Part shown: positions 10,355 to 63,746 of the stretch, piece by piece
How positions within the stretch are numbered: the stretch's first letter is position 1
Layout of the letters: the number at the start of each line of letters is the position of its first letter
NCBI GenBank assembly: GCA_964016885.1
Contig: OZ024742.1
Coordinates: 34,472,001 to 34,536,000, forward strand
Length of the DNA stretch: 64,000 bases
Direction of reading: 5' to 3'
Origin: Eledone cirrhosa
Taxonomy: Eukaryota
Position numbers and translations under genes: made by a program
Notes under the pieces: model-generated
What the model was told of the DNA's origin: nothing
Databases searched by the model: none
What the model saw: the letters and a program-made list of their open reading frames with translations, nothing else

Positions 10355-10980
<626 letters not shown>

Positions 10981-11009
10981 CACACACACTCACATATATA
11001 TATATAGTA

Positions 11010-11275
11010 ATAATAATATATTTGAAGACTAAAATCCAAAGAGGGCTCGATAAGGATAAATATATATCAAATATATAAGTACTGTAGAGCAAATATTTAT
11101 TAAAATAACATATTAATGTTTAAGCAAAAATAGATGCTTTCACCCTTAACGGGATCTTCTGAAACTATAAAAGTCCATCTGTGAACGCAGAATTAAATAA
11201 TTCAAAATACGTTGCAACCGAAGGATGACAGGAAGACGATACTTTGGTTCGTGGCAAAGAACGGAAAAAAACGAA
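11010..11275 (-). mobile_element. Family E terminal fragment with CAGAAGA hammerhead variant
   Basis: Same sequence at 29060-29214 (plus), 31300-31530 (minus) and 63552-63660 (minus). Confidence 0.65.
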
Positions 11276-11360: not shown

Positions 11361-11363
<3 letters not shown>

Positions 11364-11539
11364 GGAGGTGAGTTTTATTGTAGTACAATAAAGCAATGCA
11401 GATATCGGATAAGAAGCACTCTACAGTTTGTAGGACTGGAGTATACATAATATATAAGATCAAAAGTTATTGCATGATGATATTTGTTTTTGAAATGCGC
11501 ATAATAAAATACATGGAACTCTTTTAACCATCTTTTGAT

Positions 11540-11543
<4 letters not shown>
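11361..11543. mobile_element. Family A fold-back insertion in (TA)n
   Basis: Minus long arm 11361-11466 joined to a plus arm with the 3' half of the HHR (gaaatgcgcata), ending gatctta(TA)n. Confidence 0.7.
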
Positions 11544-11593
<50 letters not shown>

Positions 11594-12400: not shown

Positions 12401-12654
12401 ATAATTAATATTAATATCACCAGCACCATCATCGTTACTCCCACCACCACCATCATTAACAGCATCATCAACATCACCTTTATTATCATCATTCTGATCA
12501 CCACCACCACCACCACCACCAGAAACATGCCGACCATCACTATCACCATCATCATCACCATTACCATTATCATCAACACTAACATCAACACCATGTCGAA
12601 AAACCACCACCGTAACAAGAAGCAATATCAACAGCATCATCATTATCATCATCA

Positions 12655-14270
<1,616 letters not shown>

Positions 14271-14854: not shown

Positions 14855-14976
14855 TAAACCGGAGCAACGTGAAATAAAATGTCTTGTTCAAGGAAACAAC
14901 CCATCACCCGGTCCGAGAATTGAACTCGCAACTTTTCGATTGCAAGCCCAATGCTCTAACCACTAAGCCATGCGCG
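14855..14976 (-). mobile_element. Second tRNA-derived SINE family (OR/CORE-like)
   Basis: Minus strand tggcttagtggttagagc...gagttcaattctc...ccttgaacaagacattttatttcacgttgctcc; homologous to 39119-39236. Confidence 0.7.
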
Positions 14977-20564: not shown

Positions 20565-23500
20565 CTACAGGATGGTATACAGAGAAGGCGCATTTACACG
20601 AGCCATTCTCGCCACTATCACCCACCTTTCATAAAACTGCCTGTGGCCAAGCACCTCTCTCTCCATTCTTATCCTTCTTCCGAAGTGATATCGGAAGAAG
20701 TAGACCAGACTATGGCGAGAGAGGACATTGCCTGACCTCAGACCTTTCAATCGTGTCCACCAAACAACCTCTTTCAACATGGCTATTACGCACAGAAAAA
20801 CCGCCTTTGCTTCCTTTGTGAAGAGGGGAGGCGGCTTGATTGTCATCACGGACTCGGTGGTCAATCGAATCGGCGCCACCCGCGACAGCAGTCGTTCGGC
20901 GTAGCCCCACAGATCAGCCACGCCCGGACATTGCACCAATGCGTGCGCAACGGTTTCTTCGTGACGCACGCATCTAGGGCAAATCTTTTTCGAGGGATCC
21001 CTGCCCGGGCGCCTGTGTCTGTAGAGCCTCTCTCGAACGGGTAGAGCCCCCCGGTAGCACTGCCAGGCTAGTGACTTCTGGAAGTTGTCCATTGGTCCCG
21101 TGCCGAAAGTCCTACCGAACAGGCTGGCCAGTTCGTCCTCTTCCATGTCCAGCGACTCTCCAAGGGTGTCATCGCCCCTGCTAGCCACCAGCCCTCTATA
21201 GAATGATGAGGTGGATTCTCCACCGATGGCCTGGCCCGCTTGCCAGAGAGCCCTGAGCGCCTGGGCACACTCAGTGTGCCAGTCTCCCAGTTTTCCGGAT
21301 CTTTGCTTGACCCAGGACTGCAGCTCGGTGAGCGAGACGAGTCTCGGAAAGGCTCGTTTCACGAACGGAGCCCACTCCGGTTGACCAGTGAGGCATACCT
21401 GTAGGTGCCGTAGCCTTAATGCGTGCCTACGCATCATCAACCACGGCATCCCCAGCCCTCCTTTCGAAGGCTGTTGGCAGCAGATAGATCTTCTCACCAT
21501 AGGAGGGCGCTTCTTCCAAAGAAATTGGAAGAGCATGCGTTCCATGGTGGTGAGTGTTTCCTTAGGGTAAGGCACGACAGTCAGGCGGTAGTAAGTGACG
21601 GACGCTATGTAAATGTTCGCCACCTCCGCCCGGCATTTAGGGACAGTTTACACTTGGCCCATTTCTGGGTTAGTGCAAACACCTTGTTCGTAACTTCGTC
21701 CCAGTTCTTTTCCACCTGGAGGTCCGGTCCAAACCAGACCCCAAGCAACTTCACCGGGCCCTCCGTCCAGTGTCCGACGACACCGTCGGGAGGCATCGGT
21801 CTGCCTCTCCACGTTCCGAGTTGCAGCCCGATGGATTTTTCCCGGTTCAGTTTCGCTCCTGACAACCTTTCGTATTCCTCCAGTAAGGTACCGATCGCCT
21901 CGATCTCCGAGTCGGTTGATACCATTACTGTTTCGTCATCGGCGTAGGCCGACACCGCTTTGCTCAATCCTGGTTCCAGGGGGATACCCTGCAACAACTC
22001 CAACTTCCTCAGTAAAGGCTCGAGAGTCAATACGTACAGAAGGGAGGAGAGAGGGCACCGCTGTCGAATGGATCGTGTGATTTCGAACGGCTTCGAAAGG
22101 TAGCCGTTCACCTTGATCCTAGAACAGATGTGGTTGCTATGTAGGGCAGTGATCCAGCCTCTGAAAACAGGACCGAACCCAGCCGCCGCTAGCACCGCAT
22201 CCAGGTAACCATGGTCGACCCTATTGAAGGCCTTAGACTGATCCAAGTTGATCAGGGCCCCCACCGAAGCCGGGTTTGTTGCCAACCCTCTCTATGATGT
22301 ATCGCATGAGGTGGAGGTTATCGTGAATGGACCTGGATGGGATAGCACATGTCTGCGCATCTCCCACCAGGCCACCCACGACAGGCGCCAACCTCTTTGC
22401 TAACACCTTGGCCAAAATCTTTAACTCTGTGTTTAGCAGGGTTATGGGCCGAAACTTATTTATACTATCCCCCTTGTTCACATCCTTCCTCACCAGCGAG
22501 ACGACGCCCTTGGCTACAGAACAAGGAATTCTCCCGTTCTGCTGCCAATTGCAGTAGACCGCTTCGAGGAGTTCGGAGAAGAAGACCGGCATTGCTAAAT
22601 AAAGTTCGTAAGGTATACCATCAAGACCTGGAGATTTGCGTCTGCTGCATTGGCTCAGCGCATCCCCGATCTCATCAGCCGAGATTGGTCCCTCGCAGGA
22701 CGCTGCCTCTTCGTTCGAGAGACGCGGCATGCCGTCGGGGTATGGACCGAAATTCACGTCCCCGCTCGGACCCTCGCCTCCCCCGAACAATCGGGCAAAG
22801 TGCCTTTGAAAGGCCTTGCACATCTGCTTAGGCTCCCGGATCACCCGTCCATCCTCGTCTTGCAAAGACCGGATGGTGGATCGATTTCCACTCTTAGCTT
22901 CTGTCACGCGGGCCCAGCAAACGGCTTTGGCCCCCTCATTACCTAGAGCACGTATTTTACTTCGAATGACGCAGCCTTCGTGCTTTGCATCGAAAAACTG
23001 ATTCAAGGCCGTCCTCGATGCCAGCACTCTGGCCACATCTTCGCTCTTGATTGCCTCTTCTAATTTACCTGTTAATTCTTTCTCGTTTCTATTCCTATCG
23101 GCAGCTAACATCTTGCTATAACTTATTGATTCTGTTCTAATCTCTCTTTTGAGAAAGGCCCACCATCGGTTGTTGACGATTGCACCCGTCAACCTCTCCT
23201 TAACTAATCTGCTAATCCGGTTTCTGTAAGTCTCTTTTGCCGGTAAAGACAAATTAAGTTTCCAGTAACCGGGACCCTGTTTATGTGTTTTCTCGAGATT
23301 GACTACGCAGGTCACTAATTTGTGATCCGTATAGCCAACCGTGAACATTACTGGACAGCTTAATATGTCCCTATCCTTACTTCTAACTAAGAATCTATCT
23401 AAGTACGATCTAGATTGACCACTGTGGTTCGTCCAAGTCCAGGTTGGCTCAGTTGGAAAATCTAGTCGATATCTATCGACCAAGTTAAAACGGTCGAGTA

Positions 23501-24001
23501 ACCCCTTGAGGCTATTACACCCCCTCTATTAGGACATGCTCCTGTATAGTCCCAACGTGCATCTAGGATGTCATTCCAATCCCCCGCTAGAAGCAGGGAA
23601 CGCAACGTTCCCAGAAAAGTCTCCAAACGCTGGAAGAAGTCGGGCCGTTCAGCTCCGAAAGAGGAGTAGACGGCGACCAGTCTCAAGGCCGCACCTTCAC
23701 TACTGCCAACGTCTAGCACCAACAAACGACCCTCCGGGTCCGAATGAACAACCTGTACGGCGAGACCCAGGTGTTTTTCCAGCAGTACGACAACCCCACC
23801 CCCACCTCCAGGTTGACAGAGAGATGCATGCACCTCAAAGTCATCGAAGGTAGGGGCTAGCTGCCGCACGACGCTGATCCGAGTCTCACAGATAACCATT
23901 ACATTTATACCACGTGACCTGAGGTCATTTAGAAGCTTTGCATGCTTCTAAGTTGAGCCCAGGCCACGTGCATTCAAACATCCTACTCTTAACACATCCA
24001 T
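20565..24001 (-). pseudogene. LINE ORF2 (APE endonuclease, RT, C-terminal CCHC), frameshifted
   Basis: GDWN, SYLDRF, TDHK (APE); KSPGLDG, FRPITLLN, YADD (RT); CPRC-x8-H-x4-C. Split over four ORFs, plus a TGG>TAG stop near 23949. Confidence 0.92.
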
Positions 24002-24034
24002 GTGGGCGGCAAAGCCAAAGGAGAGTGTAGAGAC

Positions 24035-25919
24035 CTACCTTTCTGCTTCCCGGGGTTCGGGTCGCACGACTTCCATGGGATCTGGGGTGTTGGGTGAAGG
24101 GGTGTCTTGTGGTGGTGTGGGGTCGTCAGTGTGTGGTGGGGTTGGGGTATTTGGAGTTGTGTTGGGGAGGGGAAGGGGAGGGGGAAAGCTTTTTAGTAGG
24201 ACTAGGTTTATGGGTTTGACAGAGGGTGGTCCTACGTCCTCCTTAAAATCCTTTTTTAGTTTTTGGTAGAGGTTCATTGGGATCTTTATTAATTTTAAAT
24301 GTGGGTAGTTTTCTGAAGAAACAAAGTTTACACCTTCCGTTTGTTACGAAGGGTTATTTTTTATGAGTTCATTTAATTCATTATTGTTTCTGTTGATGTA
24401 AGTATAGTGTAATGTCTTTTTTTCGGATGGTGTGAGTGTTTCGAAGAGGGGAGGGGCGGGTTTGGTTTTGTTTGTTGCTGGAGGGTTGTTTTGTGTTTTG
24501 TTGGATTATGTTGACATTTGGGTAGGGGTTGTTTGGCCTTGTGTGTTTTGCACATGTTTTCTTTTTTCCTTTTAATCTGTCTGAAGGACTCCGTTTCTTC
24601 CTCCGAATTCGTTGGGTTATCTTCAGTGTTGGAGGGAAGAGGTATGTTTGCTGGTAATGTTTCCGTGTTGGTTTTCTTTGTGAGGGAGATGGATGTCACT
24701 ATGTTAGACTATGTTGTGTCTGCGGTGGTTGTGTTGTTTTATTGAGTGAGGTGTTGGGTGGGACTGTATTTTGTTTTTGGGTAATGTGTTGTGACTGTTT
24801 GTGTTGTGGTGGTGGTGTAGTTTTACTGAGGGACGGGTTGGGTGGGACTGAGTTTTGTTGTTTGTTTATCTGTTGTGGTGGTGGTGGAGCTGGTGTTGGT
24901 AGCAGGGTTTTCTTTTTGTTGAGTTGGGGACAAGCCGCCTTCAGGTGCCCTCTGCCTGCACAGATATGACAGGACGGCCTTCTCCCCTCCACGCTAATGT
25001 TTATATACCCGTGGCCCTCTAATAGGATTCTGTCGGGTATTTGGGCGATGCGTTCAGGCTTCATTTGCACTACAAGTTCTATACCTGTTCCACTGAACGC
25101 ATTGCCTGTGGTTTTCCCAATGGAAATCACGTTGTCATTCGCTGGCTATGAGCCAGCAGTAGTCCACATCTGGCATCATTGCATCCAGCCATATGCGCTG
25201 AGTTCTTTTCCCCATATATGATGGATAAAAGGTAAAATTTGTCGAACGAATCGGTGACAAAGCACATTTTTTTGTCGCCGATTCGTTCTTCATAATAATC
25301 GCTAGGCTTCCATACAGTCTGTCTTTTCTTATGAAAGTGGTTTCATTAAGTACTTCTATAAGTACTGCTTTGATTTCTGTTTGTGTTGGCTGATGAGGTT
25401 TTTTAGAAATGTTGTTGATGGTGCGGAAAACGACCGTTCGACTTTCAATGTCTTTGGTGAGTTCTTGAGGCATTTTTACCGATAAAATACCATTTTCCCA
25501 TTCAGTTATGTATTGTTTGGCGTCTGTAATTCTTTGTGCCACATCTGAAATATTTTCAGGTATATATGTCAAAGATTTCTAGTTGTTTGTGCAAATGAAA
25601 TATTATTGGTGTTGACTTTGTCGTCTGCTTTGCTTTCTGTTATGATGTTGTTTTCAAATGTTATTTTTGTGTTTGTTGTGTCTTTGTTTGTGGTATTAAT
25701 ATTGTCATGCAATTTTTCAAATTTTTTTTTTTCGTTGTTGGAATCAATGTCCAGATTTGTGTTTTCGTCATTTTTCTCCGCAGATTCGTCTGTTTTTATT
25801 TTATTTTTTCTTTCCTTCTCTATGACGTTAGTTGGGAAGGAAGGGGGGACTAAAGCGTGCGAGCTAACAACTCTTACCGCTGTCCCCCCACCACTATTTT
25901 CGTTAGCTTCGTTTAACAT
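24035..25919 (-). pseudogene. LINE ORF1 with zinc knuckle, fragmented
   Basis: CHICAGRGHLKAAC (CX2CX4HX4C) and a Pro/Gln/Thr-rich tail; several frameshifts relative to copy 2. Confidence 0.85.
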
Positions 25920-26423
25920 TTCTCTCAGACGATTGAAATTTTTATGCCACAAAATGTTTAAAACAGGTTTTTCACCCCTGGGAGGGGCAAAGATGAGCTG
26001 CCCCACCGCCTGACAGTTCAGACGGGGGGTCAAACTACACAATAGTATCAAAATTAAAATTGAACTTACAAAATTTCCGCAATAAATTTGAACAAAACTT
26101 CTGCGCGAAGTGTATTACATCTACGCTGTAGAACAGACGACAGCTAGATTGATAGATAAATAGATAGATAGATAGAAAGATAGATGTATTGGTTTCTTAT
26201 ATAGGCACAAGGCCAGCAATTTGGGGAGAGGAGAAAGTCGATGAAATCGAACCCAGTGTGTTACTGGTACTTTACTTTATCGACCCCGTAAGGATGAAAG
26301 GCAAAATTAACATCGGCGGATTTCAACTCAGATCATAAAGGGCCATAACTCTATGCTGCAAAGCTCGGCGTCCGACCCTATACCGATACTGCCATCGAAC
26401 TGATGAAATATATAGAAGAATTG

Positions 26424-26948
<525 letters not shown>

Positions 26949-28593: not shown

Positions 28594-29147
28594 TGTGTGT
28601 GTGTGTGTGTGTATTTATGGTGATGATGAAGTTTTATCTGTACAAATACACAACAGGATTAACTGAGATTGAGTTAAGGTTATATTTAAATGTACGAGTT
28701 TTTAGTATATATACAATATAACATGCTAAACATGAATATTTCCCTGTATATTGTAAAATGACGAATACATTTAACCGATTTTCAAGCCTAGCTGAAATCA
28801 GAAGGCATATATACTGTATCATCCAAACAACCACAACGAAATATGTAATCCATGTTCTTCCGTGCCCTGTCACGTGTTGTAGTATCTGGGAATGGACGTA
28901 CACATTCGTATATTATTAACTCATGTTGGTAGTTAATTTACATACATATTAAGTTGGCCGCTATGTAACCGATGTATATGATAAATTTAAATCTCATGTA
29001 AATATGCCAAAATGTATGTATATAAATATATGTATGCATTATGTATGGGTGGAACGTTTCCACGAACCAATTTATCGTCTTCCTGTCTTCCTCCGGTTGC
29101 AACGTTTTTTGAAATATTTACTTATGCGTTTACAGATTGACTTTGTT

Positions 29148-29198
29148 AGTTTCAGAAGATCCCGTTAAGGATGAAAGCAGCGATTCTTTGCTTAAACT
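29148..29198 (+). ncRNA. Hammerhead variant with CAGAAGA core (U4A)
   Basis: agttt-CAGAAGA-tcccgttaaggat-GAAA-gca(gcgattctt)tgc-TT-aaact. Confidence 0.55.
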
Positions 29199-29209
29199 TT
29201 AATCTGTTA

Positions 29210-29260
<51 letters not shown>

Positions 29261-29357
29261 TCCCAATATCACACATCAATCTAAAACCACTTTTCATATG
29301 TTGATTTAAAACTGCACTATCAACAAGTGTTTTTTTAGCCTTCATATCATGTTCTCC

Positions 29358-29428
29358 TGTTTTATCTGATGAAAACACAAATATTATTGTTTGATGATGT
29401 TTGTTTTTGAAATGCGCATAATAAAATA
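29358..29428 (+). ncRNA. Type I hammerhead ribozyme (family A)
   Basis: tgttttat-CTGATGA-...-GAAA-tgcgca-TA-ataaaata. Confidence 0.85.
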
Positions 29429-29552
29429 TATTGAACTCCTTTAACCATCTTTTGATCTTATATTATGCATACTCCAGTCCCACAAACTGTAGAGTGCTTC
29501 TTATCCGATATCTGCATTGCTTTATTGTACTACAATAAAACTCACCTCCTAC

Positions 29553-29614
<62 letters not shown>

Positions 29615-29802: not shown

Positions 29803-29853
<51 letters not shown>

Positions 29854-29861
29854 CGTATATA

Positions 29862-29934
<73 letters not shown>

Positions 29935-29940
<6 letters not shown>

Positions 29941-31152
29941 AATTAGTATATCCACCAACATATATATACAGATGCATACCTATGCTAGCAAATATATAGG
30001 GTTTGTCTTAGTAACTTTGTGGTTCAATGCAAGGGGATGCAGAACAATTATATGAAAGACGTAAAATAAGAAAATTATAAAAATTAACTCCAACTAATTA
30101 GTTTCTGAAAGGGAATAAACATGGTTTTCGAATGGAAAGCATGGAGAAACCTTTTGTCATCGGGGAGTCTGTTCTCAGCTAAGTTACCAGGCGATGCGTG
30201 GACACAGGGAACTTATACAAGAATAATTCAGTGGATGGAAAAAAGCAAGCGTGGACTAAATTGCAAGACATTGAAAAAATCACTGCCTACTTGGTCGGTG
30301 GCAAATTCAAAAGAATCAATCACGTGACATCGTGGTTAATCAGTGAGGAGTGGGGTGTTAAAAAGACAGTGGCCGAGCCATGACTATAAACTATAGAGTA
30401 GTTTTGGCAAATGTTTGCTCATTAAAATAATTTGGAGATAATTATAAAGAATTAGTATATCTACCAACATATATATACAGATGTATACCTATGCTAGCAA
30501 ATATATAGGTTTTGTCTTAGTAACATTGCGGTTCAATGCAAGGAGATGCAGAACAATTTGCCACCGACCAAGTAGGCAGTGATTTTTTCAATGTCTTTTT
30601 ATAATTTTCTTATTTTACGTCTTTCATATAATGTTTCTACATCCCCTTGCATTGAACCGCAATGTTACTAAGACAAAACCTATATATTTGCTAGCATAGG
30701 TATACATCTGTATATATATGTTGGTAGATATACTAATTCTTTATAATTATCTCCATATTATTTTGTTGAGCAAAAATTTGCCAAACTGCTACTATAGTTC
30801 ATAGTAATGGCTCGGCCACTGTCTTTTTAACACCCACTCCACACTGATTAACCTCGATGTCACGTGATTGATTCTTTTGAATTTGCCACCGACCAAGTAG
30901 GCAGTAATTTTTTTCAATGTCTTGGAACTTAGTCCACGCTTGCTTTTTTCCATCCACTGAATTATTTTTGTATAAGTTCCCTGTGTCCACGCATCACCTG
31001 GTAACTTAGCTGAGAACAGACTTCCTGATGACGAAAGGTTTCTCCATGCTTTCAATTCGGAAACCATGTTTATTCCCTTTCAGAAACTAATTAGTTGGAG
31101 TTAAATTTTAGTAAGTTAATTTTTATAATTTTCTTATTTTACGTCTTTCATA
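29935..31152. mobile_element. Fold-back insertion of a tandem about 510-bp non-coding hammerhead unit
   Basis: ataaagaattagtat at 29935 and 30444 (period 509). The opposite arm repeats tataattttcttattttacgtctttcata at about 30600 and about 31124. HHRs at 31019-31102 (+) and 30086-30169 (-, core CCGATGA). Confidence 0.8.
31019..31102 (+). ncRNA. Type I hammerhead ribozyme
   Basis: gacttc-CTGATGA-c-gaaagg...cctttc-a-GAAAC-taatta-GTT-ggagtt; palindromic stem III. Confidence 0.8.
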
Positions 31153-31154
31153 TG

Positions 31155-31303
<149 letters not shown>

Positions 31304-33600
31304 ATAAATTTGAAGACTAAAATCCAAAGAGGGCTCGATAAGGATAAATATATTTCGAATATATAAGAAACGTAGAGCAAATATTTATTAAAATAACAGA
31401 TTAAAGTTTAAGCAAAGAATCGCTGCTTTCACCCTTAACGAGATATTCTGAAACTAAAAAAGTCAATCTGTGAACGCAGAAGTAAATATTTCAAAAAACG
31501 TTGCAACCGAAGGAAGACAGGAAGATGATAGGTATGTTTTCCTGCTTGGTACGGGTATGTTCTTTGTAGAAATATTCAGATGTTGTTTCTGCATGATGAA
31601 TATAAGTCAATAGAGTGCTCAACCGATATATAAACATATATATATAAACATGTATATATAAACATGTATATATAAACATATATATATAAACATATATATA
31701 ACGAAGGAAATGTGGTAAGGAACGAGATGGACCATAACGCACCAGAGTACTCAATACTTAGGGTAGTAGAGTGGGTAATAGGAAAAAGTATGACCATGGT
31801 CATACTTTTTCCTATAAACTTATATATATAAACATGTATATATATATATGTGTGTCTGTGTGTGTATATATATATATATATGTGTGTTTGTGTGTGTGAG
31901 ATGAGTGAATACCGGTGCAATAGATTAGAAATGCCCCTGCAGATGTATCTCCATGCCTGTCATTATCCACTTTACATTTCATATGTATTCGTGTTGATTA
32001 AATCACCTAAACATCTTGAAGACAGTTAGCAGCATGGCCATAACCCAACGACAAACCATTGAAAGAACAAAAAAAAAAATTCGTCTTATTTATTTTTTGT
32101 TGTTGTTATTCCTAGATTTTACCATTAATTTAGACGTCTAAAATAGTTAGAACTCTCAATAATGGATCCGTAATCTATTCAGAAACGTGGAAACCTTAAG
32201 CATAAGAGTTGTCCGTAGTTCCATTTCCAAAGGACAATTGCTTTGTTTCTGTGTTTCTTTTTTCATCGTAATTTCGTTACATCAAAGTATTTTCTAATAC
32301 GAATTCATTAACACTGAATTTCGTGTGAGCTCTGTCAGCGAATATTGATCAAGTAATCCAATTAATGAGAATCGATTCATCAGCAAGTCTTCTGATACCA
32401 ATTTACGTTGATATGCAATGAGCAAGTAGAAACGTCGCAACTCCAGTCAATTTTCCTTCTGTGTTGATTGTGTTTTAAATCACGCCGTAGCTCACTTTCG
32501 AATTTCATGCCTGCTGGATTGATTTTGACTTCAATAGACATCTACTATTTCTTGGCGTTGTTGTTGTTTAGCCCCAGCTCAATTCCCATCGTTAATACTT
32601 AATACTTATGATCATCTATAAACTATTTTTACATTGAGTCGGCACTGAGATGTGGCTCAAAGATTCACTTCATAATCACGTGTATCCGAATCCAATCTTA
32701 TTGATTGTTCTGGTACCACACTGCCTGATACGGCCCCTGGTTCAATGATATTGAGTTAAAGTCTTTATATTTATCTGAAAATCTTCCGTCACAAATAAAT
32801 TAGGAATATTTGTTAAGTTATAAATACGAGATAACGAGAAACTTAATTGTATGACAACCCTCCAAATTCTAACAATTTTCGGAATCATTTTAAAATCAAA
32901 GGCGGTGTATTTCATTAGAAATGTAGTAACGAAAGGTTTAATCGACTTCCCCTCCCTCAAAATTGCTGCCATTGTGCCTAAATCAGAAACATTTATGCTG
33001 CTTTGCAACATAGAGTTACGTCCCTTTACGATATGAATTCAAATCCCGCCAAGGTTAACTTTACCTTTCATCCTTGCAGGGTCGATAAATATATATATAA
33101 AGTACCAGTAATGCACTGAGACAATTACTGGCCTTGTGCCAAAAGTAGAAACAATTATTATTGTTTGGGGAGGACCGGTAAAATTCCAGTTAGAAATACA
33201 AGAGTGGAAACTCAAGTAGAGTAAAGTAAGAAAAACTCATTCAGTATGTGTGTGTGTATGCGTGTCTATGTATGTGTGTGTGTACGTCTGTATGCCTGTG
33301 TGTCTTTGTCTCGTATATATTCGTAGGAAGGAAGATAGGTTGGTAGGAAGAAAGTTATTAGTATTCATGTTTAACATACTTAATAACATGACAAAGAACC
33401 CACAGCTGTCATGTCTATAAAGTGTTACAACAAGTGAATTGGAACAAAGTAGTACATTTCTCATTAAGGCCTGACTTCCATTGTTAAATATCGAAATAAA
33501 TGAATATACTTGTCATATATATAAGAAAGGTTGTATGTAAGTGGATATATATAAATGTATATATGTATATATCTATATATATTTGTACATAAGCATAATT

Positions 33601-36415: not shown

Positions 36416-36770
36416 CTATCACTGTTGAGTCTAATGTGTGGTATATCTAGTTATATCACTGTTGAGTCTAACGTGTGGTCATATCTAGTTGTATCACTAT
36501 TGAGTCTAATACGTGGTTTATATCTAGTTATATCACTGTTGAGTCTAATACGTGATCATATCTAGTTGTATCACTGTTGAGTCTAATACGTGGTTTATAT
36601 CTAGTTATATCACTGTTGAGTCTAATACGTGGTTATATCTAGTTAAATCACTGTTGAGTCTAATACGTGGTTTATATCTAGTTATATCACTGTTGAGTCT
36701 AATACGTGGTTTATATCTAGTTATATCACTGTTGAGTCTAATACGTGGTTATATCTAGTTAAATCACTGT
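36416..36770. repeat. Minisatellite, 38-41-bp unit, about 9 copies
   Basis: Unit atatctagttatatcactgttgagtctaatacgtggtt(t). Confidence 0.9.
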
Positions 36771-39118: not shown

Positions 39119-39236
39119 AAGGCATGTGGCTGAATGGTTAGGGAATTGGGTTCGCAATCGTAAGGTTGTGAGTTCGATTCCTGGACCAGGCGATGCGTTA
39201 TGTCCTTGAGCAAGACACTTTATTTCACGTTGCTCC
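39119..39236 (+). mobile_element. tRNA-derived SINE (OR/CORE-like)
   Basis: A box tggctgaatgg, B box gagttcgattcc, body gtccttgagcaagacactttatttcacgttgctcc. Confidence 0.75.
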
Positions 39237-39982: not shown

Positions 39983-40120
<138 letters not shown>

Positions 40121-40489
40121 GAAAGTTATATTTAAAATTGTTGGGTTACAACTAGTAAATATTTATAACTGATATAAAAGCACTCGACAAATATTTGGAG
40201 TATATTTACAATATTAAATAAATGGAAACTATATTTATAAAACCATATTTATTTCATTATATATATTTCAGGGATATCATATTAACAATATGCTATGCCT
40301 TCCTCAGACAAAATACAATATAAACAGTCTTATAGATAAATAGATTCGACATACCGTAACAACATCGACTTGCATTTGAAGAGGTTAATTTGGCAGTGAA
40401 AAAAAATTGTACACAGAGAGAAAGAAAGAGAGAAAAAAAAAAGAAAGAAAGACAGAAAGAGGAATTTTGAAAATGACCTGCCAGTTAGA

Positions 40490-42112
40490 TTGATCGCACC
40501 ATCAAAATCGGACCTGGGCAAATTAAGCAAAAACATTCTTGACAGGGTGATACAGCAAATTAAGAACTTGGATTGTTTATCTAACCTGAGCTTGTGGAAG
40601 GGAACTGGAAAGGTTGTTGAGTGGTTTAAGCAAATTAAATATAACAATAATGATAAGTTTATTCAACTTGATATAACTAACTATTATTCTTCTATTACCC
40701 CTAATCTACTAAATAAGGCACTAAATTACGCATTCAAACATACTGACCTAACTAGCAATGAAATGCATATTATATTATCGGCTAGGAAAACTTTGATAGA
40801 ATTTAATGACAAACTATGGCCCAGAGCAGATAGAGATAGCAATTTTGACATAACTATGGGATCATCCGACTCAGCTCAGGTAACTGACCTTGTGGGCTTA
40901 TTTTTAATCAATTCGCTACATAGGAAAATACCTGGTACTACCGGAGGTTTATATAGAGATGACATGCTTTTACTTATTGATAATAATAACCCTGAACTAA
41001 ATAGAAAATGTAAACAAATTACACAATTTTTTAATTACTTTAATCTTAAAATAGAAATTGAGAACAACCATAGAATAGTCAATTTCCTAGATATAACATT
41101 AAATCTCAACACATGTCTTCACTATCCTTTTCACAAGTTGAATGAAAACTTAAACTGTGTCAACTTTAACTCTAACCACCCCAGATCTGTCAAAAACACT
41201 ATAGTAAACTCTGTTCAAAAACGTATCTCTAGGATCTCGTCGAATAGAAAGATTTTCGACGAAAAAGCCCAATACTATAATGAAGCATTAGCTAGAGCAG
41301 GATATGCTGATAAGATTGTGTACATAGATAATGATAGACAAACTAAACAAAGTAACAACTTTTTTAATTACGGCAACAACCTTAACAACTATAATAGAAA
41401 GCATTACAATAATTCCAAAGGACAAAAAAGAAATAGAACTAGGAACATAATTTGGTTTGCCCCCCCTTTCTCACTAAACATTAAAACCCACATCGCTAAA
41501 CTAGTTTTCAAAGCTCTTGATAATCGCTTCCCTAGAACACATAGGTATCACTCAATTTTCAATAGACATACAATAAAATTAACCTACTCATCCACCAAAA
41601 ATTTAGCACAAAATATTAATTGAATAAATAATAGGAACTTAAAACCTAGTGATAATAGCATAAATAATATACAAGTTAACAAATGTAACTGTAGAGATAG
41701 ATCTAAATGTCCGTTAAATAACAACTGTTTAGTTAAAAATATAGTATACAATTGTAATGTTAATACTGACTCTAATTCTTTTAACTACGTCGGTTCCACA
41801 TCGACGGAATTTAAACTTCGCTATAATAACCACAAGAATTCTTTCACAGATCCAAGCAAAAAATCTTCAACGGCACTATCAGGCGTACTCTGGCAACTTA
41901 AGCTAGATAACGTTAGATATTCGACGGCTTGGAATATAGTCTCAAGAGGGATTCCTTTTAATTCATCCTCTGAGACATGTGACCTCTGCGCAGAGGAGAT
42001 ATTCTTTATACTAAAATCTAAAAATTCCCTTAATCTACGGACAAATTTATTCAGTTGCTGCAAACATAGATTAAACTCAACTTTTAAATATAAATTTAAA
42101 TTTAAAATGTAG
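40490..42112 (+). pseudogene. PLE RT plus C-terminal GIY-YIG endonuclease, one in-frame TGA at 41621
   Basis: LDITNYY, ITMGS, LYRDD, NFLDITL. The same frame continues after the TGA: KCNCRDRSKCPLNNNC, IVY...YVGST, RYNNH, CDLCAEE, LN, CCKH, then TAG at 42110-42112. Confidence 0.88.
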
Positions 42113-43480
42113 TATATTTAGTTTGATATATATTTATATGGGAAACTAGCCGATAAATCTTTGATTCCTTCTTTTTATTCTTTTTATTTTTTATTTTTAT
42201 TTTATTTTTATTTAAACATTCCTCATGAAAAATTAAGCTACCCTAAAAGCTGATGCTCCAAATATTTCGAATAAACGTTACACTAGATAAACTTCTATAT
42301 TAAATATAAGAACACATGTAGACCAAATTGGGCATCCTAAACTTTTTGAAATGATCTTTGCTAGATGTGATTTGATAGATAATTTTTGGCTTTATCTGTT
42401 TTTCGACTCTGATGCTTATAATGAACTTGGCAATATATTGTCAATTAATTTTGAAGGGTTGATCTTTGTGGTTTATTTTTATTTTTTATTATTGTAGTAT
42501 TTTCTAATATTTTTATTTTTAATATTTTAATTTTTAATATTTTTAATATGTAAATTTTTTAATATGTAATATTTTTAATATGTAATATTCTTTCGTAATA
42601 TTTTTTTAGTTTTCTATTTTATTATTACTTATTATTATTATTGTTATTTTTTAGTTTTGTTTCTGATATATATTTTTATTAGTATATTGAAATCTGCTCT
42701 CTATTTCTGCTTGATAGATAATCTTGTAGAGTAAAGACAGGAATAATAATACACATATATGTATACTCAAATTTTTATACCACATTGAGAATGTTTTCCG
42801 TGAACCTAGGGTTTGCAGAGTTGATCATGTAGACTCACATGGATGTTTGTAGCTATCACATAAACATATGAATTTTTTTAAAAAACTAAACATAAGATCA
42901 TTAATTTTCACACACTATGGATACTTGTCTCATTCAGGAATACTGATATTTACAATATAGTGGATGTTTTATAAATACTAATACCTCTACATTAAAACAT
43001 AGGGTTTTTACGCCTCGCATATATCTGGTTATTTTTAAATTTTTTCTCTCGCTATATTTTTTTCTCTCTCTATATTTTTTTCTCTCTCTATATATCTCCC
43101 TTACATTAATACTAGAGCTAAATAAATAAATAAATAAATAAATGTATCATTGATACATTTACTCAACAGACCTCCCACTACCTAATTTTCTATATATATA
43201 TGTATCTATCTCTATTTCCTCTCTCTCTATATATATATATATATCTTTCTGTTTCTTTACATGAAGTTCTTCTCTTTATCTATCTTTCCATCTCTCTATT
43301 TTGTTCCATGCATTTCTTCTTTTTCTTCCTTTTCTTCGTTTTCTGTCTTTCTTTCTTTTTTTTCTCTCTTTCTTTCTCTCTGTGTACAATTTTTTTTCAC
43401 TGCCAAATCAACCTCTTCAAATGCAAGTCGATGTTGTTACGGTATGTCGAATCTATTTATCTATAAGACTGTTTATATTG

Positions 43481-43546
43481 TATTTTGTCTGAGGAAGGCA
43501 TAGCATATTGTTAATATGATATCCCTGAAATATATATAATGAAATA
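43481..43546 (+). ncRNA. Type I hammerhead in the PLE 3' terminal repeat
   Basis: tattttgt-CTGAGGA-aggcatagcatatt(gtt)aatatgatatccct-GAAA-tatata-TA-atgaaata. Confidence 0.8.
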
Positions 43547-43583
43547 AATATGGTTTTATAAATATAGTTTCCATTTATTTAAT

Positions 43584-43629
<46 letters not shown>

Positions 43630-44953: not shown

Positions 44954-47029
44954 TTAGGGAGAAGTGTTTAGACGGGGTCCGTATTTGTTAATAAAGTAAG
45001 ATTCCTTGCTGATGCGCTGGGTGTGGGTGGCATTATCTTTAAATTTGTAGAGGGGAAATATTCTGAAGTTGGGATGATTTTGAGCGGCACAGGTATCAAT
45101 GTGTTCACTCAGTGGTATTTTCCTGTATTCCTGTATTTTAATTTGGGATCTATGGACAGTCATGCGTTGGCGGAGGCTGTTTTTGGTCTGGCCTATGTAT
45201 TGTTCTCGACAACCTGAGCAAGTTAATACATATATTAGATTTTCCGATGCACATGTGAAATTGTGTTTTACTATAAAACGTTGTCCTTCTTTGAAATAGA
45301 ATTCCGAACCCTCTATTAGGTTGATGCAAATGCCACAGTTGGGTCTATCGCATTTTATTACTGTGGGTTTCGTTGTTGTGGTTGGCAGTACTTTGGCATG
45401 TGTTAGGATGTTTTTCATTGACTTAGATTGTCTTTTGCTCTTTATGATATCGTGTGTTCGCAGGATTTGGTTCATTCTATGGTCCTTTTTCAACACAGGG
45501 ATGTTCTGGAGGATGGTGTCAAAGGCCTCATTGTTGAGGGGATTGTGTGTGGAGATGTATGGAAGAGCTTTTAGTTTCGGTTGATTTACTTTAGGGTGTC
45601 TAAGGTCCTGGGTACTGAGTTTTAGGGCACGTTGGATTCCATTGTCAATTAGTGATGCAGGATAGTCCCTGTCTATGAGTGTGTCCTTTAGTTCTTGTAG
45701 CCGTAAGTAGCAGGTGTTTTTATTGGAGACTATAGTACAGATTCTCTTTGCTAAGTTGTAGGGAATATTAATTTTAACGTGTCTAGGGTGGCAAGAGTTG
45801 AAAGGAAGATATTGCTTGGAGTCTGTGGGCTTGTAGTATATGTTTGTTTCTATTTTTTTGTTATGGATCTTAATGAGGATGTCGAGGAAGGGGAGTTGTT
45901 GATGGCTGTATTCCATCGTGAAGTTAATATTCGTGTTGAGCCCATTTATAAGGGTGTGAAATTCTTTAAGTTTCTCGATGTTTTCGTGCCAAAGGATGAA
46001 GCAGTCATCTAGATATCGCTTCCAGTTCCTTTCTATGTGTAAGTGGAGAGTGTTTCCAAATTTGTTTAGGACTTTAGTGTAGAGAGTGATTTCCAGGTAT
46101 CCCATGACTAGGTTGCCATAAGTGGGGGCTGTTTTCGTTCCCATAGCGGTCCTAGATTTCTGCCTGTAGGATTTGTTATTGAAAACGAAGTAATTGTTCT
46201 CCAAGATAAATTTGAGTCCCTCTATCACGAATTCTTTTTTGATGCGTTGTGGGAGTTCATTGTGGTAATTATCCAGCCAGAATTGGATAGCTTCTATTCC
46301 TAGGTTGTGAGGGATGTTGGAGTATAGGTTGACTACATCGAACGTCACTAGTAGGGTTTGTTCAGAAAGTGGCATATTAGGGAGGTGATTGAGCATATCT
46401 AGGTCGTCCCTTATATAGCTTTTGATGTGTTTGAGAAAAGGCTTGAGAAGGGTATCAATGAAGTTGCTAAGGCGGTGGGTTTCGCAAGCGGGGCCTGCTA
46501 TTATAGGTCTTAATTTGAGATCATTGGGTGAGGGGACATTGATGACTATGTCTGTGGCTTCCTTGCATGCCTTACTTATTAATTCGCTTTTATGTACTTT
46601 AGGGATACCGTAGAAAAGGGTGGATTTACTTGTGAAGTCTGTGATGAAGCTGAATTCCTTGTTAGTGAGTCCTTCTTTGTATTGGTTGATTAGAGTTTTT
46701 AGGTTTCTCATGATTTTCTGTTGATTGTAGTCTTCAGCCTTTTCGTAGTATGTTTCGTTTTCCAAAGTGGAGAGCGCTAAGTTGATATAGAATTCTGTCT
46801 CCATTAGGACTACTGTACTCCCTTTATCAGCCTCTTTAATTGTAATGGTTCTGTCGGTTTTTAATCTATTTAATTCTTCCCATTCTTTCTTGTTGAGGTT
46901 TGGCTTGTATTTTAGTCTGTGCAAGTGTTGGTAAGGGAAGTTTGTGATGTGTTCACAGAATTCGTCCAGGATTTTAATTCTACCTTTTGATGGGGTGTAA
47001 TTGCTTCTATTTCTGGCTAATGATTCATC

Positions 47030-47032
<3 letters not shown>
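44954..47032 (-). CDS. PLE reverse transcriptase plus GIY-YIG endonuclease (about 690 aa uninterrupted, N-terminus missing)
   Basis: KEADKG, FYGIPKVHK, LRPII, FDVVNLYSNI, TAMG, RYLDD, LPFLD, YYKPTD, CxxxxCxxC linker, LIYVLTCSGCREQYIGQT, R..H, E, LN. The listed ORF's first about 50 aa come from upstream (TA)n and flank. Confidence 0.9.
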
Positions 47033-47112
<80 letters not shown>

Positions 47113-47289
47113 AGAAGCAAAATTTGCTTATTGTGATCCAGTTCTTGGTTAAGAAAGCCAGTTTCATGGATGGTTTCAACGTACGGTTAGGGGTAACTCC
47201 ACAAGTTTGTAAGAATTCCGTTCAATCTTGGAGTATAAAGTATAAAAGAGAAAACACAGGTAAGCATTAAGAGAAGGATTTTATCCAGG

Positions 47290-49268: not shown

Positions 49269-49992
49269 ATGAGTTGTAACAACAACGAAACTAGTTCAAT
49301 ATTCCTTGTCTGGCTTTCTGGAGAATAGAGGAGAGGTGTTTCCTCAAAAACCAGTATGACTCTAAAAACCGGTTTGTCTGTGTGTTTACATACAGAATAG
49401 CTGGCCACTCACAGTAAAGTGACCAGTGAAAAAACTTGGTACACCTACATATGTATACGTGTGTGTATTCATATACATACTAGTATTTCAGTATACATAT
49501 ATGGATGTACATCTTTAACTTAATTGTTTAAGCGTCAGTCATACAAAAGTGAGTTACAAACGAAACGAAATTTAATTTCGTTTCGTTATTTGTTTTTATC
49601 GTCTCCGTTGAACCGGTACTTACTCACACTCTATGCAAATTAGTCTGCCCACTACTAATTTTCATAGAAAAAGCATATAACGATATGTGCTTTTACGATT
49701 CTCTAGAGAGGCCGGAAGATAGGTAAATATTGCTGATGAGTTGTAACAACAACGAAACTAGTTCAATATTCCTTGTCTGGCTTTCTGGAGAATAGAGGAG
49801 AGGTGTTTCCTCAAAAACCAGTATGACTCTAAAAACCGGTTTGTCTGTGTGTTTACATACAGAATAGCTGGCCACTCACAGTAAAGTGACCAGTGAAAAA
49901 ACTTGGTACACCTACATATGTATACGTGTGTGTATTCATATACATACTAGTATTTCAGTATACATATATGGATGTACATCTTTAACTTAATT
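49269..49992 (+). mobile_element. Non-coding tandem unit (467-bp period, about 1.55 copies) with a hammerhead; retrozyme-like
   Basis: 49269-49523 is repeated essentially exactly at 49736-49990; ends in (TA)n. Confidence 0.85.
49726..49770 (+). ncRNA. Minimal type I hammerhead ribozyme
   Basis: aatattg-CTGATGA-gttgt(aaca)acaac-GAAAC-ta-GTT-caatatt; perfect stems I and II, palindromic stem III ACUAGU. Confidence 0.92.
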
Positions 49993-51611: not shown

Positions 51612-52075
<464 letters not shown>

Positions 52076-52906: not shown

Positions 52907-54292
52907 TTGGCACATTGCAACATGTTGGCAGATTACAACATGTTGGCACATTGCAACATATTGGCACATTCCAACATATTGGCACATTGCAACATGTTGG
53001 CACATTACAACGTGTTGGCACATTGCAACATGTTGGCAGATTACAACATATTGGCACATTGCAACATGTTGGCACATTACAACATGTTGGCACATTGCAA
53101 CATGTTGGCACATTACAACATGTTGGCAGATTACAACATATTGGCACATTGCAACATGTTGGCACATTACAACATGTTGGCACATTGCAACATGTTGGCA
53201 GATTACAACATATTGGCACATTGCAACATGTTGGCACATTACAACATGTTGGCACATTGCAACATGTTGGCACATTACAACATGTTGGCACATTGCAACA
53301 TGTTGGCAGATTACAACATATTGGCACATTGCAACATGTTGGCACATTACAACATGTTGGCACATTGCAACATGTTGGCACATTACAACATGTTGGCAGA
53401 TTACAACATATTGGCACATTGCAACATGTTGGCACATTACAACATGTTGGCACATTGCAACATGTTGGCAGATTACAACATATTGGCACATTGCAACATG
53501 TTGGCACATTACAACATGTTGGCACATTGCAACATGTTGGCACATTACAACATGTTGGCAGATTACAACATATTGGCACATTGCAACATGTTGGCACATT
53601 ACAACATGTTGGCACATTGCAACATGTTGGCAGATTACAACATATTGGCACATTGCAACATGTTGGCACATTACAACATGTTGGCACATTGCAACATGTT
53701 GGCACATTACAACATGTTGGCACATTGCAACATGTTGGCAGATTACAACATATTGGCACATTGCAACATGTTGGCACATTACAACATGTTGGCACATTGC
53801 AACATGTTGGCAGATTACAACATATTGGCACATTGCAACATGTTGGCACATTACAACATGTTGGCACATTGCAACATGTTGGCACATTGCAACATGTTGG
53901 CACATTGCAACATGTTGGCACATTGCAACATGTTGGCACATTGCAACATATTGGCACATTGCAACATGTTGGCACATTGCAACATGTTGGCACATTGCAA
54001 CATGTTGGCACATTGCAACATGTTGGCAGATTACAACATATTGGCACATTGCAACATGTTGGCACATTACAACATGTTGGCACATTGCAACATGTTGGCA
54101 CATTGCAACATGTTGGCACATTGCAACATGTTGGCACATTGCAACATGTTGGCAGATTACAACATGTTGGCACATTGCAACATGTTGGCACATTGCAACA
54201 TGTTGGCACATTGCAACATGGCACATTGCAACATGTTGGCACATTGCAACGTGTTGGCACATTGCAACATGGCACATTGCAACATGTTGGCA
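52907..54292. repeat. 18-bp minisatellite, about 77 copies, with higher-order pattern
   Basis: Variants ttggcacattgcaacatg, ttggcacattacaacatg and ttggcagattacaacata. Confidence 0.95.
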
Positions 54293-55102: not shown

Positions 55103-55605
55103 CGCCGTTTATTCTAGGAAAAGCATGGTATAATCCAATGCATCAGCTATGTCGAGTCTGCGCATCTGTAATTATAATTTGGATTGATTTCTATAATTCA
55201 TCATATTTGCAATTTGTTGCTTTATTGAAGTCTTATTTTTATTTTCTTAACCTTTGATGTTCTATTTTGAACTATATATTCAGGTAGTTGATATTGTATT
55301 GGGAGATACAGTCTGTTCGATATGATTCTGTTCTGTAGAAACTACCTCGGGCACTATATATAGATAGAGATAAAATCTAGCTGTCGTCTGTTCTACAGTG
55401 TGGATGTCATTCACTTCGCACAGAAGTTTTGTTCAAATTTATTGAGGAAATTTTGTGAGTTCAAACTTAATTTTGATACAATTGTGTAGCTTGACCCTCC
55501 GTCTGAACTGTCAGGCGGTGGGTCAGCTCATCTTTACCCCTCCTAGAGGTGAAAAACCTGTTTTAAAAAAAATTTTGTGTAAAAAATTTCAATCGTCTAA
55601 CAGAA

Positions 55606-57482
55606 ATGTTAAACGCAGCGAACGAAAATAGTGGTGGGGGGACAGCGGTAAGAGTTGTAAGCTCGCACGCTTTAGTCCTCCCTTCCTTCCCAACTAACGT
55701 CATAGAGAAGGAAGGAAAAATGAAAATAAAAACGGACGAATCTGCGGAGAAAAAATTAAATGACGAAAACAACGAAAAAAAAAAATTTGAAAAATTGCAT
55801 GACAATACTAATAACACAAACAAAGACACAACAAACAAAAAAATAACAGTTGAAAATAACATCATATCAGAAAACAAAGCAGACGACCAGATTTCATTTG
55901 CACAGAAAACAAAGAAATCTTTGACTTATATAGCGGAAAACATTTCAGATGTGGTACGAAGGATCACGGACGCAAAACAATACATAAGTGAAGGTGAGAA
56001 TGGTATTTTATTGGTAAAAATGCCACAAGAATTCACGAAAGACATTGAAAGCCGAACGGTCAAGTTTCGGACCATCAACAACAGTACAAAAAAACCTGAA
56101 CAGCCTTCTCAAGCAGATATCAAAACAGTACTCGCAGAAGTACTGAATGAAACAACTTTCATAAGAAAAGACAGACTGTATGGAAGCCTAGCAATTATCA
56201 TGAAGAACGAATCGGCGGCAAAAAAATGTGCTTTGTCACCGATTCGTTCGAAAAATTTCACCTTTTATCCATCTTATATGGGAAAAAAACTCAACGCATA
56301 TGGCTGGATGCAATGATGCCAGATGTGGACTACTGCTGGCTCATAGCTGGCTTCATCGATCCAGTGAATGACAACGTGATTTCCATTGGGAAAACCACAG
56401 GCAATCCGTTCAGTGGAACAGGTATAGAGCTGGTAGTACAAATGAAGCCTGAACGCATCGCCCAAATACCCGACAGAATCCTATTAGAGGACCACGGGTA
56501 TATAAACATTAGCGTGGAGGGGAGAAGGCCGTCCTGCCATATCTGTGCAGGCAGAGGGCACCTGAAGGCCGCTTGTCCCCAACTCAACAAAAAGAAAACC
56601 CTGCTACCAACACCAGCTCCACCACCACCACCACAACAGATAAACAAACAACAAAACTCAGTCCCACCCAACCCGTCCCTCAGTAACACCACAACACCAC
56701 CACAACACAAACAGTCACAACACATTACCCCAAAACAAAATACAGGCCCACCCAACCTCTCACTCAATAAAACAACACAACCACCGCAGACACAACACAC
56801 AACACAGTCTAACATAGTGACATCCATCTCCCCCACAAAGAAAACCAACACGGAAACATTACCAGCAAACATACCTCTTCCCTCCAACACTGAAGATAAC
56901 CCAACGAATTCGGAGGAAGAAACGGAGTCCTTCAGACAAATTAAAAGGAAAAAAAGAAAACATGTGCAAAACACACAAGGACAAACAACCCCCACCCAAA
57001 TCGCAACACAATCTAACAAAACAGAAAACACCCCTCCAGCAACAAACAAAACCAAACCTGCCCCTCCCCTCTTCGAAACACTCACACCATCGGAAAAAAA
57101 GACATTACACTATACTTACATCAACAGAAACAATAATAAATTAAATGAACTCATATACAATAATCCTTCGGTACAAACCGAAGGTGTAAACTTTGTTTCA
57201 TCAGAAAACCACCCACATTTAAAACTAATAAAAATCCCAATGAACCTCTACCAAAAACTAAAAAAGGATTTTAAGGAGGACGTAGGACCACCCTCTGTCA
57301 AACCCATAAACCGCGTCCTACTAAAAAGCTTTCCCCCTCCCCTTCCCCTCCCCAACACAACTCCAAACACCCCAACCCCACCACACACCGACGACCCCAC
57401 ACCACCACAAGACACCCCTTCACCCAACACCCCCGACCCCATGGAAGTCGTGCAACCCGAACCCCGGGAAGCGGAAAGGTAG
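55606..57482 (+). pseudogene. LINE ORF1 (zinc knuckle), one frameshift in an A-run near 56285
   Basis: Two overlapping ORFs (55606-56316 and 56226-57482); CHICAGRGHLKAAC. Confidence 0.88.
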
Positions 57483-57515
57483 GTCTCTACACTCTCCTTT
57501 GGCTCTGCCGCCCAC

Positions 57516-60500: not shown

Positions 60501-60927
60501 AAAAAAGATTTGCCCTAGATGCGTGCGTCACGAAGAAACCGTGGCGCACGCATTGGTGCAATGTCCTGGCGTGGCTGATCTGTGGGGCTACGCCGAACAA
60601 ATGCTGTCGCGGGTAGCGCCGATTAAATTGACCGCCGAGTCCGTGATGACAATCAAACCGCCTCCCCTCTTCACAAAGGAAGCAAAGGCGGTTTTTCTGT
60701 GCGTAATAGCCATGTTGAAAGAGGTTGTTTGGTGGACACGATTGAAAGGTCTGAGGTCAGGCAACTTCCTCTCTGGCCATAGTCTGGTCTACTTCTTCCG
60801 ATATCACTTCGGAAGAAGGATAAGAATGGAGAGAGAGGTGCTTGGCCACAGGCAGTTTTATGAAAGGTGGGTGATAGTGGCGAGAATGGCTCGTGTAAAT
60901 GGGCCTTCTCTGTATACCATCCTGTAG
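57516..60927 (+). pseudogene. LINE ORF2 (APE-RT-CCHC), one frameshift from a 26-bp deletion near 58546
   Basis: LNARGL, ICET, GDWN, TDHK; LDQSKAFD, QGCPLS, YADD; CPRC..H..C. Confidence 0.93.
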
Positions 60928-63463: not shown

Positions 63464-63553
<90 letters not shown>

Positions 63554-63746
63554 TATTAAAATAACAGATTAAAGTTTAAGCAAAGAATCGCTGCTTTCAC
63601 CCTTAACGGGATCTTCTGAAACTAACAAAGTCAATCTGTAAACGCAGAAGTGGATATTTGCACCGTTTCCTCTCACCTCCTTTTTGCTATATGTCTCTCC
63701 ACCACTCCCCGACACACCCTTTGAACTCTCTTCCCACACACTTTTT

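Follow-up and report, generated by a model that had tools for sequence, protein, structure and literature searches.

A hammerhead fold-back in a (TA)n tract of Eledone cirrhosa and its possible origin by twin priming on one multimeric RNA

Introduction

How does a short non-coding unit carrying a hammerhead ribozyme come to stand as two inverted arms, each just over one unit long, inside a (TA)n microsatellite? The question is raised by a locus of the octopus Eledone cirrhosa, which we analyzed within a stretch of 64 kb (hereafter, the window, meaning that whole stretch). Tandem hammerhead units of 51-972 bp have been proposed to be non-autonomous derivatives of Penelope-like elements (PLEs) (Li, Clavereau & Pollet 2026, 10.64898/2026.07.22.740005; Cervera & de la Pena 2020, PMC7229834). 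Inverted, partial-tandem, and (TA)n-targeted PLE insertions are already described (PMC8557442, PMC3846280), and the formation of such tandem and inverted structures has been called 'still undefined' (PMC8557442). The proposals made for them include circular templates (PMC4209133), antisense self-priming (PMC3846280), and two internal RT starts (PMC11167929).

Architecture of the fold-back

Self-BLAST and a repeat search place a fold-back at 29934-31153, set between two (TA)n tracts, which bears out an earlier claim, made from the letters alone, that the locus is a real fold-back. Its parts are listed below, and phases are counted from +1, the first nucleotide past the predicted hammerhead cut.

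29817-29937, no strand: left (TA)n target tract, with a TATA microhomology to the 3' end of the left arm
29934-30558, minus: left arm, 625 nt, period 509, 1.23 units
29934-30049, minus: copy A of a 116-nt segment (the 'tail', between two putative RT start sites)
30086-30169, minus: degenerate type I hammerhead of the left arm, predicted cut between 30092 and 30091
30443-30558, minus: copy B of the 116-nt segment, at the inner end of the left arm
30555-30597, plus: templated junction insertion, 43 nt, unit phase +294..+336
30596-31153, plus: right arm, 558 nt, period 524, 1.07 units
30630-30745, plus: copy C of the 116-nt segment
31019-31102, plus: type I hammerhead of PLE type, predicted cut after 31096
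31099-31113, plus: 15-nt imperfect tandem duplication (12/15), starting 3 nt past the cut, right arm only
31150-31221, no strand: right (TA)n target tract, with an ATAT microhomology to the 3' end of the right arm

This geometry is read directly from the alignments. It agrees with the preliminary description, which gave about 1.2 units of period 509 on the minus strand for the left arm and about 1.05 units on the plus strand, in another phase, for the right arm (which starts at +9). The left arm is a partial tandem in which 29934-30049 repeats 30443-30558, and the right arm has a period of 524 because of the 15-nt insertion at 31099-31113. This duplication at the cut+3 position could be the scar of a template jump onto a second RNA, or simple slippage. 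In both arms the unit closes on itself head-to-tail, with a GC content of 34-36%. The locus has both a partial tandem and an adjacent inverted 5'-truncated copy, and a target-site duplication is not resolvable, as the insertion sits inside a (TA)n microsatellite. The arms were said to differ by many substitutions, and indeed 23/507 aligned positions differ, with 5 gap openings. The 116-nt segment forms a hairpin with a z of -4.2 in copy B and -4.4 in copy C; the hairpin of copy A ends about 13 nt short of the 3' end (z -2.45). There are no further copies of the 509-nt unit within the 64-kb window.

The short piece between the arms (30556-30597) had been described as scrambled. It turns out to be a plus-strand templated copy of phases +294..+336, identical at 43/43 positions to the left arm (30265-30307, inverted) and at 42/44 to the right arm. 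It joins the left arm via a 4-nt self-complementary microhomology and the right arm via a 2-nt one. At each outer end, about 4 nt of TA microhomology are shared with the flanking tract (TATA on the left, ATAT on the right). These microhomologies, which are also directly observed, lend support to the earlier proposal that a tandem or circular hammerhead unit was copied from both ends of one (TA)n break.

The hammerhead ribozymes

We searched for type I hammerheads with a descriptor that demands helix I, helix II, and a palindromic helix III, and whose core motifs we take to be those of this class. It matches the right arm at 31025, with a predicted cut after 31096, and gives 12 matches in the window vs 0 in each of 20 block-shuffled windows. 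Rfam has no hammerhead match here, neither at gathering nor at E-value thresholds, and detects none of the 12 in the window. Its MIR841 and MIR6274 matches were discarded, being below threshold and merely reflecting the long hairpin. In the right hammerhead, helix I counts 6 bp, helix II is long and opened by one unpaired nucleotide per side, and helix III is a 10-nt palindrome, with a dimer duplex of -9.0 kcal/mol, suited to dimer folding. This ribozyme also has the extra nucleotide after position 9 that, together with the long helix II and the palindromic helix III, is a feature described for PLE hammerheads (PMC4209133). In free MFE folding of the monomer, the hammerhead fold is not favoured (z -0.72), and constraining it costs 2.5 kcal/mol.

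The left-arm hammerhead fails the descriptor: it has U4C in an otherwise intact core and has lost the first G-C pair of helix II (G-to-A). The earlier statement that both arms carry a hammerhead unit is hence accurate for the right arm, which passes the descriptor, and has to be qualified for the left arm, where the ribozyme is degenerate. There is one hammerhead per arm, in opposite orientations, and two consecutive intact ribozymes are absent.

Coding capacity and genomic surroundings

By six-frame translation the unit is non-coding and holds no PLE ORF (telomerase-like RT and GIY-YIG). A 66-codon antisense frame (30183-30380) has neither a Pfam match nor a homologue among proteins of 36-116 aa, and tblastn of 25 PLE protein queries against the unit gave nothing significant (best E 0.08). 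Beyond TA-rich low complexity, no pLTR of an autonomous partner matching the unit is present in the window. Given the absence of two consecutive intact ribozymes and of a PLE ORF, we file the locus as a derived non-autonomous copy and not as an active array. That it is a non-autonomous PLE/retrozyme insertion we hold to be highly probable, a conclusion much safer than the step to a single template molecule discussed below.

The window is AT-rich, microsatellite-dense animal DNA, and contains several other repeats. An inverted pair at 29073-29222 and 31381-31530 (the right side also given as 31299-31530; 9/150 different) brackets the fold-back, and its family has further copies at 11011-11241 and 63553-63659. 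We considered a nesting of the fold-back inside this pair as an older insertion, but tied no hammerhead to it; the pair possibly represents insertions that occurred independently in a microsatellite hotspot. An APE-RT-zf non-LTR retrotransposon, which we presume to be L1/Tx1-like, has two copies, at 20565-26114 (minus) and 55563-60927 (plus); they are 3% diverged over 3.3 kb and both carry stops or frameshifts. A tRNA-like repeat occurs at 14861-14970 (minus) and 39127-39236 (plus), the two being 83% alike (Rfam tRNA 30.5 bits, no call by ARAGORN), and is likely a tRNA-derived SINE head. Long satellites comprise an 18-nt unit x77 (52907-54292), (AGT)n x539 (12654-14269), and a 39-nt unit x9 (36417-36770). 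Candidate exon frames at 32156-33038 have no Pfam match, and the frame 32297-32446 has 0 matches in 1.84 billion representatives, which leaves an intronic location of the fold-back unsupported.

Divergence of the copies

The divergence of the arms had been taken to mean that two different RNA templates were copied. The duplicate within the left arm is equally diverged: 6/116 positions differ there, vs 23/507 between the arms (Fisher p=0.81), and a second comparison of within-arm and between-arm divergence gives 6/150 vs 23/507 (p=1.0). Private changes in the three-copy 116-nt segment number 5 in A, 1 in B, and 3 in C (star phylogeny with equal rates, p=0.32), and copy B is nearer to the right arm (4 differences) than to its own-arm duplicate A (6). 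This equal divergence of all copies is a direct observation. In a Poisson model, the best-fit extra difference between the arms is 1.2%, with a delta lnL of 0.31 over zero and an upper 95% limit of 3.9%. A model of a young insertion from two templates, with decay fixed at 0.2%, lies 8 lnL units below equal decay. Since within-arm and between-arm divergence are the same and private changes are star-like, two different templates are unsupported; decay of copies from a single template, the alternative that the preliminary description had itself named, fits the differences. The power of this comparison is limited: an extra template difference of up to 3.9% is allowed, so that two RNA molecules of one family or source may have served, and heterogeneity among the units of a source array is inseparable from decay at this single locus.

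In other families of the window, insertions that look young have near-identical arms or repeats, differing at 0/101, 1/250, 0/59, 0/17, and 0/257 positions, and one more diverged insertion differs at 8/72. Across these loci the comparison suggests that divergence builds up with age, copies starting alike and then drifting. A drift of about 2.3% per copy would amount to roughly 6 Myr, if the octopus substitution rate of 0.0036 per Myr (PMC13282606) applies. Two other sources of the pattern were considered and set aside. A-to-I editing of the template is not reflected in any A/G excess (7 A/G and 6 C/T among the 23 differences), and the case for gene conversion around the centre of the hairpin, a longest run of identity of 111 nt, is not significant (p=0.07).

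Phase geometry and the template

Read from 30558 down to 29934, the left arm covers phases +43..+509 and then +1..+158, and the right arm covers +9..+509 and then +1..+42. Given as ranges, the outer and inner ends of the left arm lie at +154 to +158 and +43 to +47, respectively; the outer end of the right arm lies at +38 to +42, and inwards this arm stops 8-10 nt beyond the cut phase, as if the RT had neared a 5' end made by the ribozyme. The outer ends would correspond to RT start sites, which we call site 1 (right arm, +38 to +42) and site 2 (left arm, +154 to +158).

The outer end of the right arm (+42) directly precedes the inner end of the left arm (+43). When the right arm and the inverted left arm are set against a tandem reference, they run gapless at the joint over 2.29 units. 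The gap is 0 at maximal extents, 5 nt against the right-arm reference, owing to substitutions that the right arm has at this place, and at most 8 nt given the microhomologies. With 3 special positions allowed per inner end, the chance of an exact abutment is 1.2%, of one within 4 nt 10%, and of both inner ends lying near a special position 1.0%; exact abutment is seen once, and both it and the inner-end features were noticed post hoc. The abutment itself is plain from the coordinates, the arms meeting in phase as one template would, and it is a further point at which the locus departs from the two-template proposal.

The signature of twin priming is that an inverted segment and a non-inverted one follow each other directly on the same template, with microhomologies (PMC2912911); an example with a 13-nt gap has been reported (10.1101/2024.12.14.628481). 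At our locus the arms are contiguous on one template, and microhomology is found at each of the two target junctions as well as at the inversion junction. Because the arms are contiguous in phase and joined through microhomologies, they carry the signature of twin priming on a single RNA. We therefore favour, with moderate confidence, twin priming on one linear multimeric hammerhead RNA in (TA)n, followed by ordinary decay.

The steps that we infer would run as follows. Transcription of a tandem source would give an RNA spanning 2.3 units or more, with a 5' end probably made by hammerhead cleavage and with two internal ribozymes left uncut. A PLE RT/GIY-YIG protein, acting in trans, would cut both (TA)n strands. 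One DNA end would prime at site 2 (+158) of the last unit and be extended over 625 nt until it met the other primer, and the other DNA end would prime at site 1 (+42) of the preceding unit and be extended over 558 nt, nearly to the RNA 5' end. The two cDNAs would collide at +42/+43, and their ends would be joined via the 43-nt templated insertion through microhomologies of 2-4 nt. Each copy would afterwards drift by about 2.3% through neutral mutation.

Other hammerhead fold-backs in the window

As an object, the fold-back at 29934-31153 is ordinary for this genome: besides the 12 type I hammerheads, the window has at least 5 other PLE fold-backs in (TA)n. We examined six other inverted pairs, picked from the self-BLAST list and not a systematic sample. 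Five of them are of hammerhead families, and the sixth, which we could not place, is the bracketing pair at 29073-29222 and 31381-31530. Each of the five has its arms ending at two different positions of the family. The end phases past the cut are +49/+140 and +50/+141 in a Hydra-type family (26539-26918 and 40117-43590, respectively) and +39/+133 in the family at 51666-51980 and 11361-11546 (family D), vs +42/+158 in the 509-nt unit. The fold-back at 10521-10990 has one end at +113 and the other about 35 nt further, and its arms are 8/72 different. The segments between the two ends, or tails, measure 91 and 94 nt in two other families of the window, vs 116 nt in the 509-nt unit. For a PLE it has been described that two RT start sites bound the tail, that both DNA strands are cut and extended, and that uncut RNA is the main substrate (PMC11167929). 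From their positions, the outer ends in the window look programmed in this manner, with two RT start sites bounding the tail and both strands extended.

Several of these loci merit description. At 40117-43590 lies a 5'-truncated Hydra-type PLE in (TA)n, with one in-frame stop at 41623; it has an inverted 5' pLTR with tail and a 3' pLTR, and these arms differ at 1/250 positions. Its ORF (40400-42112) has CxCX5C, CxxC, and CxH motifs as described in PMC8557442, and the best named matches of the RT frame at 40400 are from Argonauta hians and Octopus sinensis (2 of the 22 matches). The mini fold-back of the same family at 26539-26918 has two hammerheads head-to-head. A Neptune-type ORF (44954-47221, minus) has a weak RVT_1 match, CX4CxxC, and GIY-YIG, and adjoins the (TA)n tract 47033-47107. 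The Hydra- and Neptune-type ORFs are candidate trans partners of the 509-nt unit. Family D has hammerhead copies at 51666-51980, 11361-11546, 29296-29553, and 1018-1185, with two fold-backs in (TA)n whose two end sites are 94 nt apart; we rejected the idea of a closed circle of about 260 nt for this family, as no copy joins its two ends. In the fold-back at 10521-10990 the tail measures about 35 nt, and one more copy of it lies near 10663-10697. Another hammerhead unit that is likewise non-coding, and apparently young, is found at 49269-49992 (plus), with a period of 467 nt, 1.55 units, and a repeat that is 257/257 identical. Its 3' end is on (TA)n at +229 past the cut, its 5' end is inside the core of the upstream ribozyme, and no inverted arm of it was seen. 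Further type I hammerheads with a palindromic helix III, belonging to other families, occur at 9041 and 52759 (plus).

Alternative explanations

One result from these loci speaks against a single RNA. Of the five further fold-backs of hammerhead families that we examined, 5/5 have arms whose phases overlap (by 17-250 nt), and RT starting at site 2 is thus not generally blocked at site 1. A stop at +43 that is intrinsic to the family of the 509-nt unit (e.g., through a protein bound at site 1) could give the same picture with two RNAs, and intrinsic stops seem to exist, since in family D a 5' end is common to two copies. This leads to the first rival, in which two separate RNAs of the same family, one per subunit of a PLE dimer, were primed at sites 1 and 2, and the left arm stopped at +43 by an intrinsic block or by chance, with no need for different subfamilies. 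In its favour, a dimer is predicted for the PLE protein, which extends both strands (PMC11167929), the best fit leaves 1.2% of extra arm divergence, and the 15-nt duplication, together with the inner end of the right arm just past the cut, may mean repeated run-off or jumping. But this excess does not reach significance, the model of a young insertion from two templates is rejected, and the exact abutment must then be a coincidence (about 1-10%) or need the putative intrinsic stop. We consider this explanation unlikely, though worth keeping in view.

A monomeric 509-nt circular RNA (a retrozyme circle), reverse-transcribed in a rolling manner from both break ends, is in our assessment quite improbable. 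Each arm exceeds one unit and passes the cut site, as a circle would allow, and the unit folds as a circle better than its shuffles do (z -2.4 and -3.3). Circular templates have been proposed for PLEs (PMC4209133), a circular form is reported for retrozyme RNAs (PMC7229834), and identical starting copies would fit the star-like decay. Yet a circle gives no reason for the stop of the right arm 8-10 nt past the cut phase, nor does it explain why the left arm passed site 1 once and stopped there the second time.

It is more improbable still that only the left arm was reverse-transcribed and that its cDNA snapped back and primed itself to yield the right arm as well as the junction piece. For inverted pLTRs, self-priming is among the published proposals (PMC3846280), and the junction piece, identical to the left arm, does begin at a self-complementary 4-mer, so that snap-back may be the source of the 43-nt piece alone. 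For the whole locus, however, three template jumps are needed, and the outer end at +42 with its ATAT microhomology, which resembles site 1 of other families, is left unexplained. Finally, PLE inverted structures are described as troublesome for assemblies (PMC8557442), but an assembly or library fold-back artefact is hardly credible here, as a read-level chimera would yield near-identical mirror arms whereas these differ at 23/507 positions plus indels, have different phases, and flank a templated junction.

Comparison with known systems

With twin priming on one multimeric RNA as the preferred reading, the locus behaves as would a retrozyme unit inserted in the manner of a PLE by twin priming, and it shares traits with several known systems. 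Like the metazoan non-LTR retrozymes, it has a non-coding, low-GC head-to-tail unit with a type I hammerhead, and 509 nt falls inside the range of 51-972 bp given for them (10.64898/2026.07.22.740005). Unlike those described, which are tandem arrays with two intact ribozymes in a row, it is an inverted pair of just-over-unit arms, and its hammerhead, whose cleavage is predicted, has the long helix II and the palindromic helix III of the PLE type. With EN+ PLEs of the Hydra and Neptune clades (PMC8557442, PMC3846280) it shares the partial tandem and the adjacent inverted 5'-truncated copy, as well as the (TA)n target and the hammerhead with palindromic helix III (Craig et al. 2021; Arkhipova et al. 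2013). Unlike them, it is without an ORF. A tail on one arm is present in form, but this tail equivalent, at 116 nt, is longer than the 30-40 bp reported for EN+ PLEs (PMC8557442), as are the tails of 91 and 94 nt in the two other families.

A mechanistic parallel is Poseidon PAc of Anolis (Frangieh et al. 2024, PMC11167929), where two internal RT starts downstream of the hammerhead also bound the tail, both target strands are extended at an AT-rich target, and uncut ribozymes are copied through. The starts described for PAc are not homologous to the cut DNA, whereas here there is a 4-nt TA microhomology at both ends, and the RNA-seq reported for PAc has no ends at the cut site, whereas here one arm stops 8-10 nt from the cut (PMC11167929). 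As in LINE-1 twin priming (Kojima 2010, PMC2912911), the opposite segments are contiguous on one template, and microhomology occurs at the target and inversion junctions. Unlike LINE-1, the locus lacks poly(A) and a resolvable target-site duplication, both primings seem to be internal and at family-typical sites, and the arms are homologous and form a hairpin, because the template is a tandem repeat. We found no application of twin priming to PLE inversions in the literature that we searched, older Penelope mechanism papers and most subscription papers being outside that search.

Implications for PLE insertion

The value of this locus is mechanistic and modest, and one locus cannot settle the insertion model of PLEs. 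As a tentative generalization, inverted PLE insertions may be programmed twin priming, in which a dimer cuts both (TA)n strands and primes two fixed sites on different units of one linear, ribozyme-trimmed multimer. Under this model the fixed RT sites might lie at about +40-50 and +135-160 past the cut in three families of the window, a suggestion that we regard as equally tentative. Because the unit is short and tandem, the ends of the arms can be read as phases. If the model is true, short non-autonomous hammerhead units are phase rulers that record the collision of cDNAs and the run-off at the cut, and linear multimers would be favoured over circles or antisense self-priming as the template of insertion. 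The recorded phases would also testify, from events in vivo, that RNA 5' ends are defined by the PLE hammerhead. Surveyed across a whole genome, such insertions would discriminate between the models of PLE insertion by computation alone.
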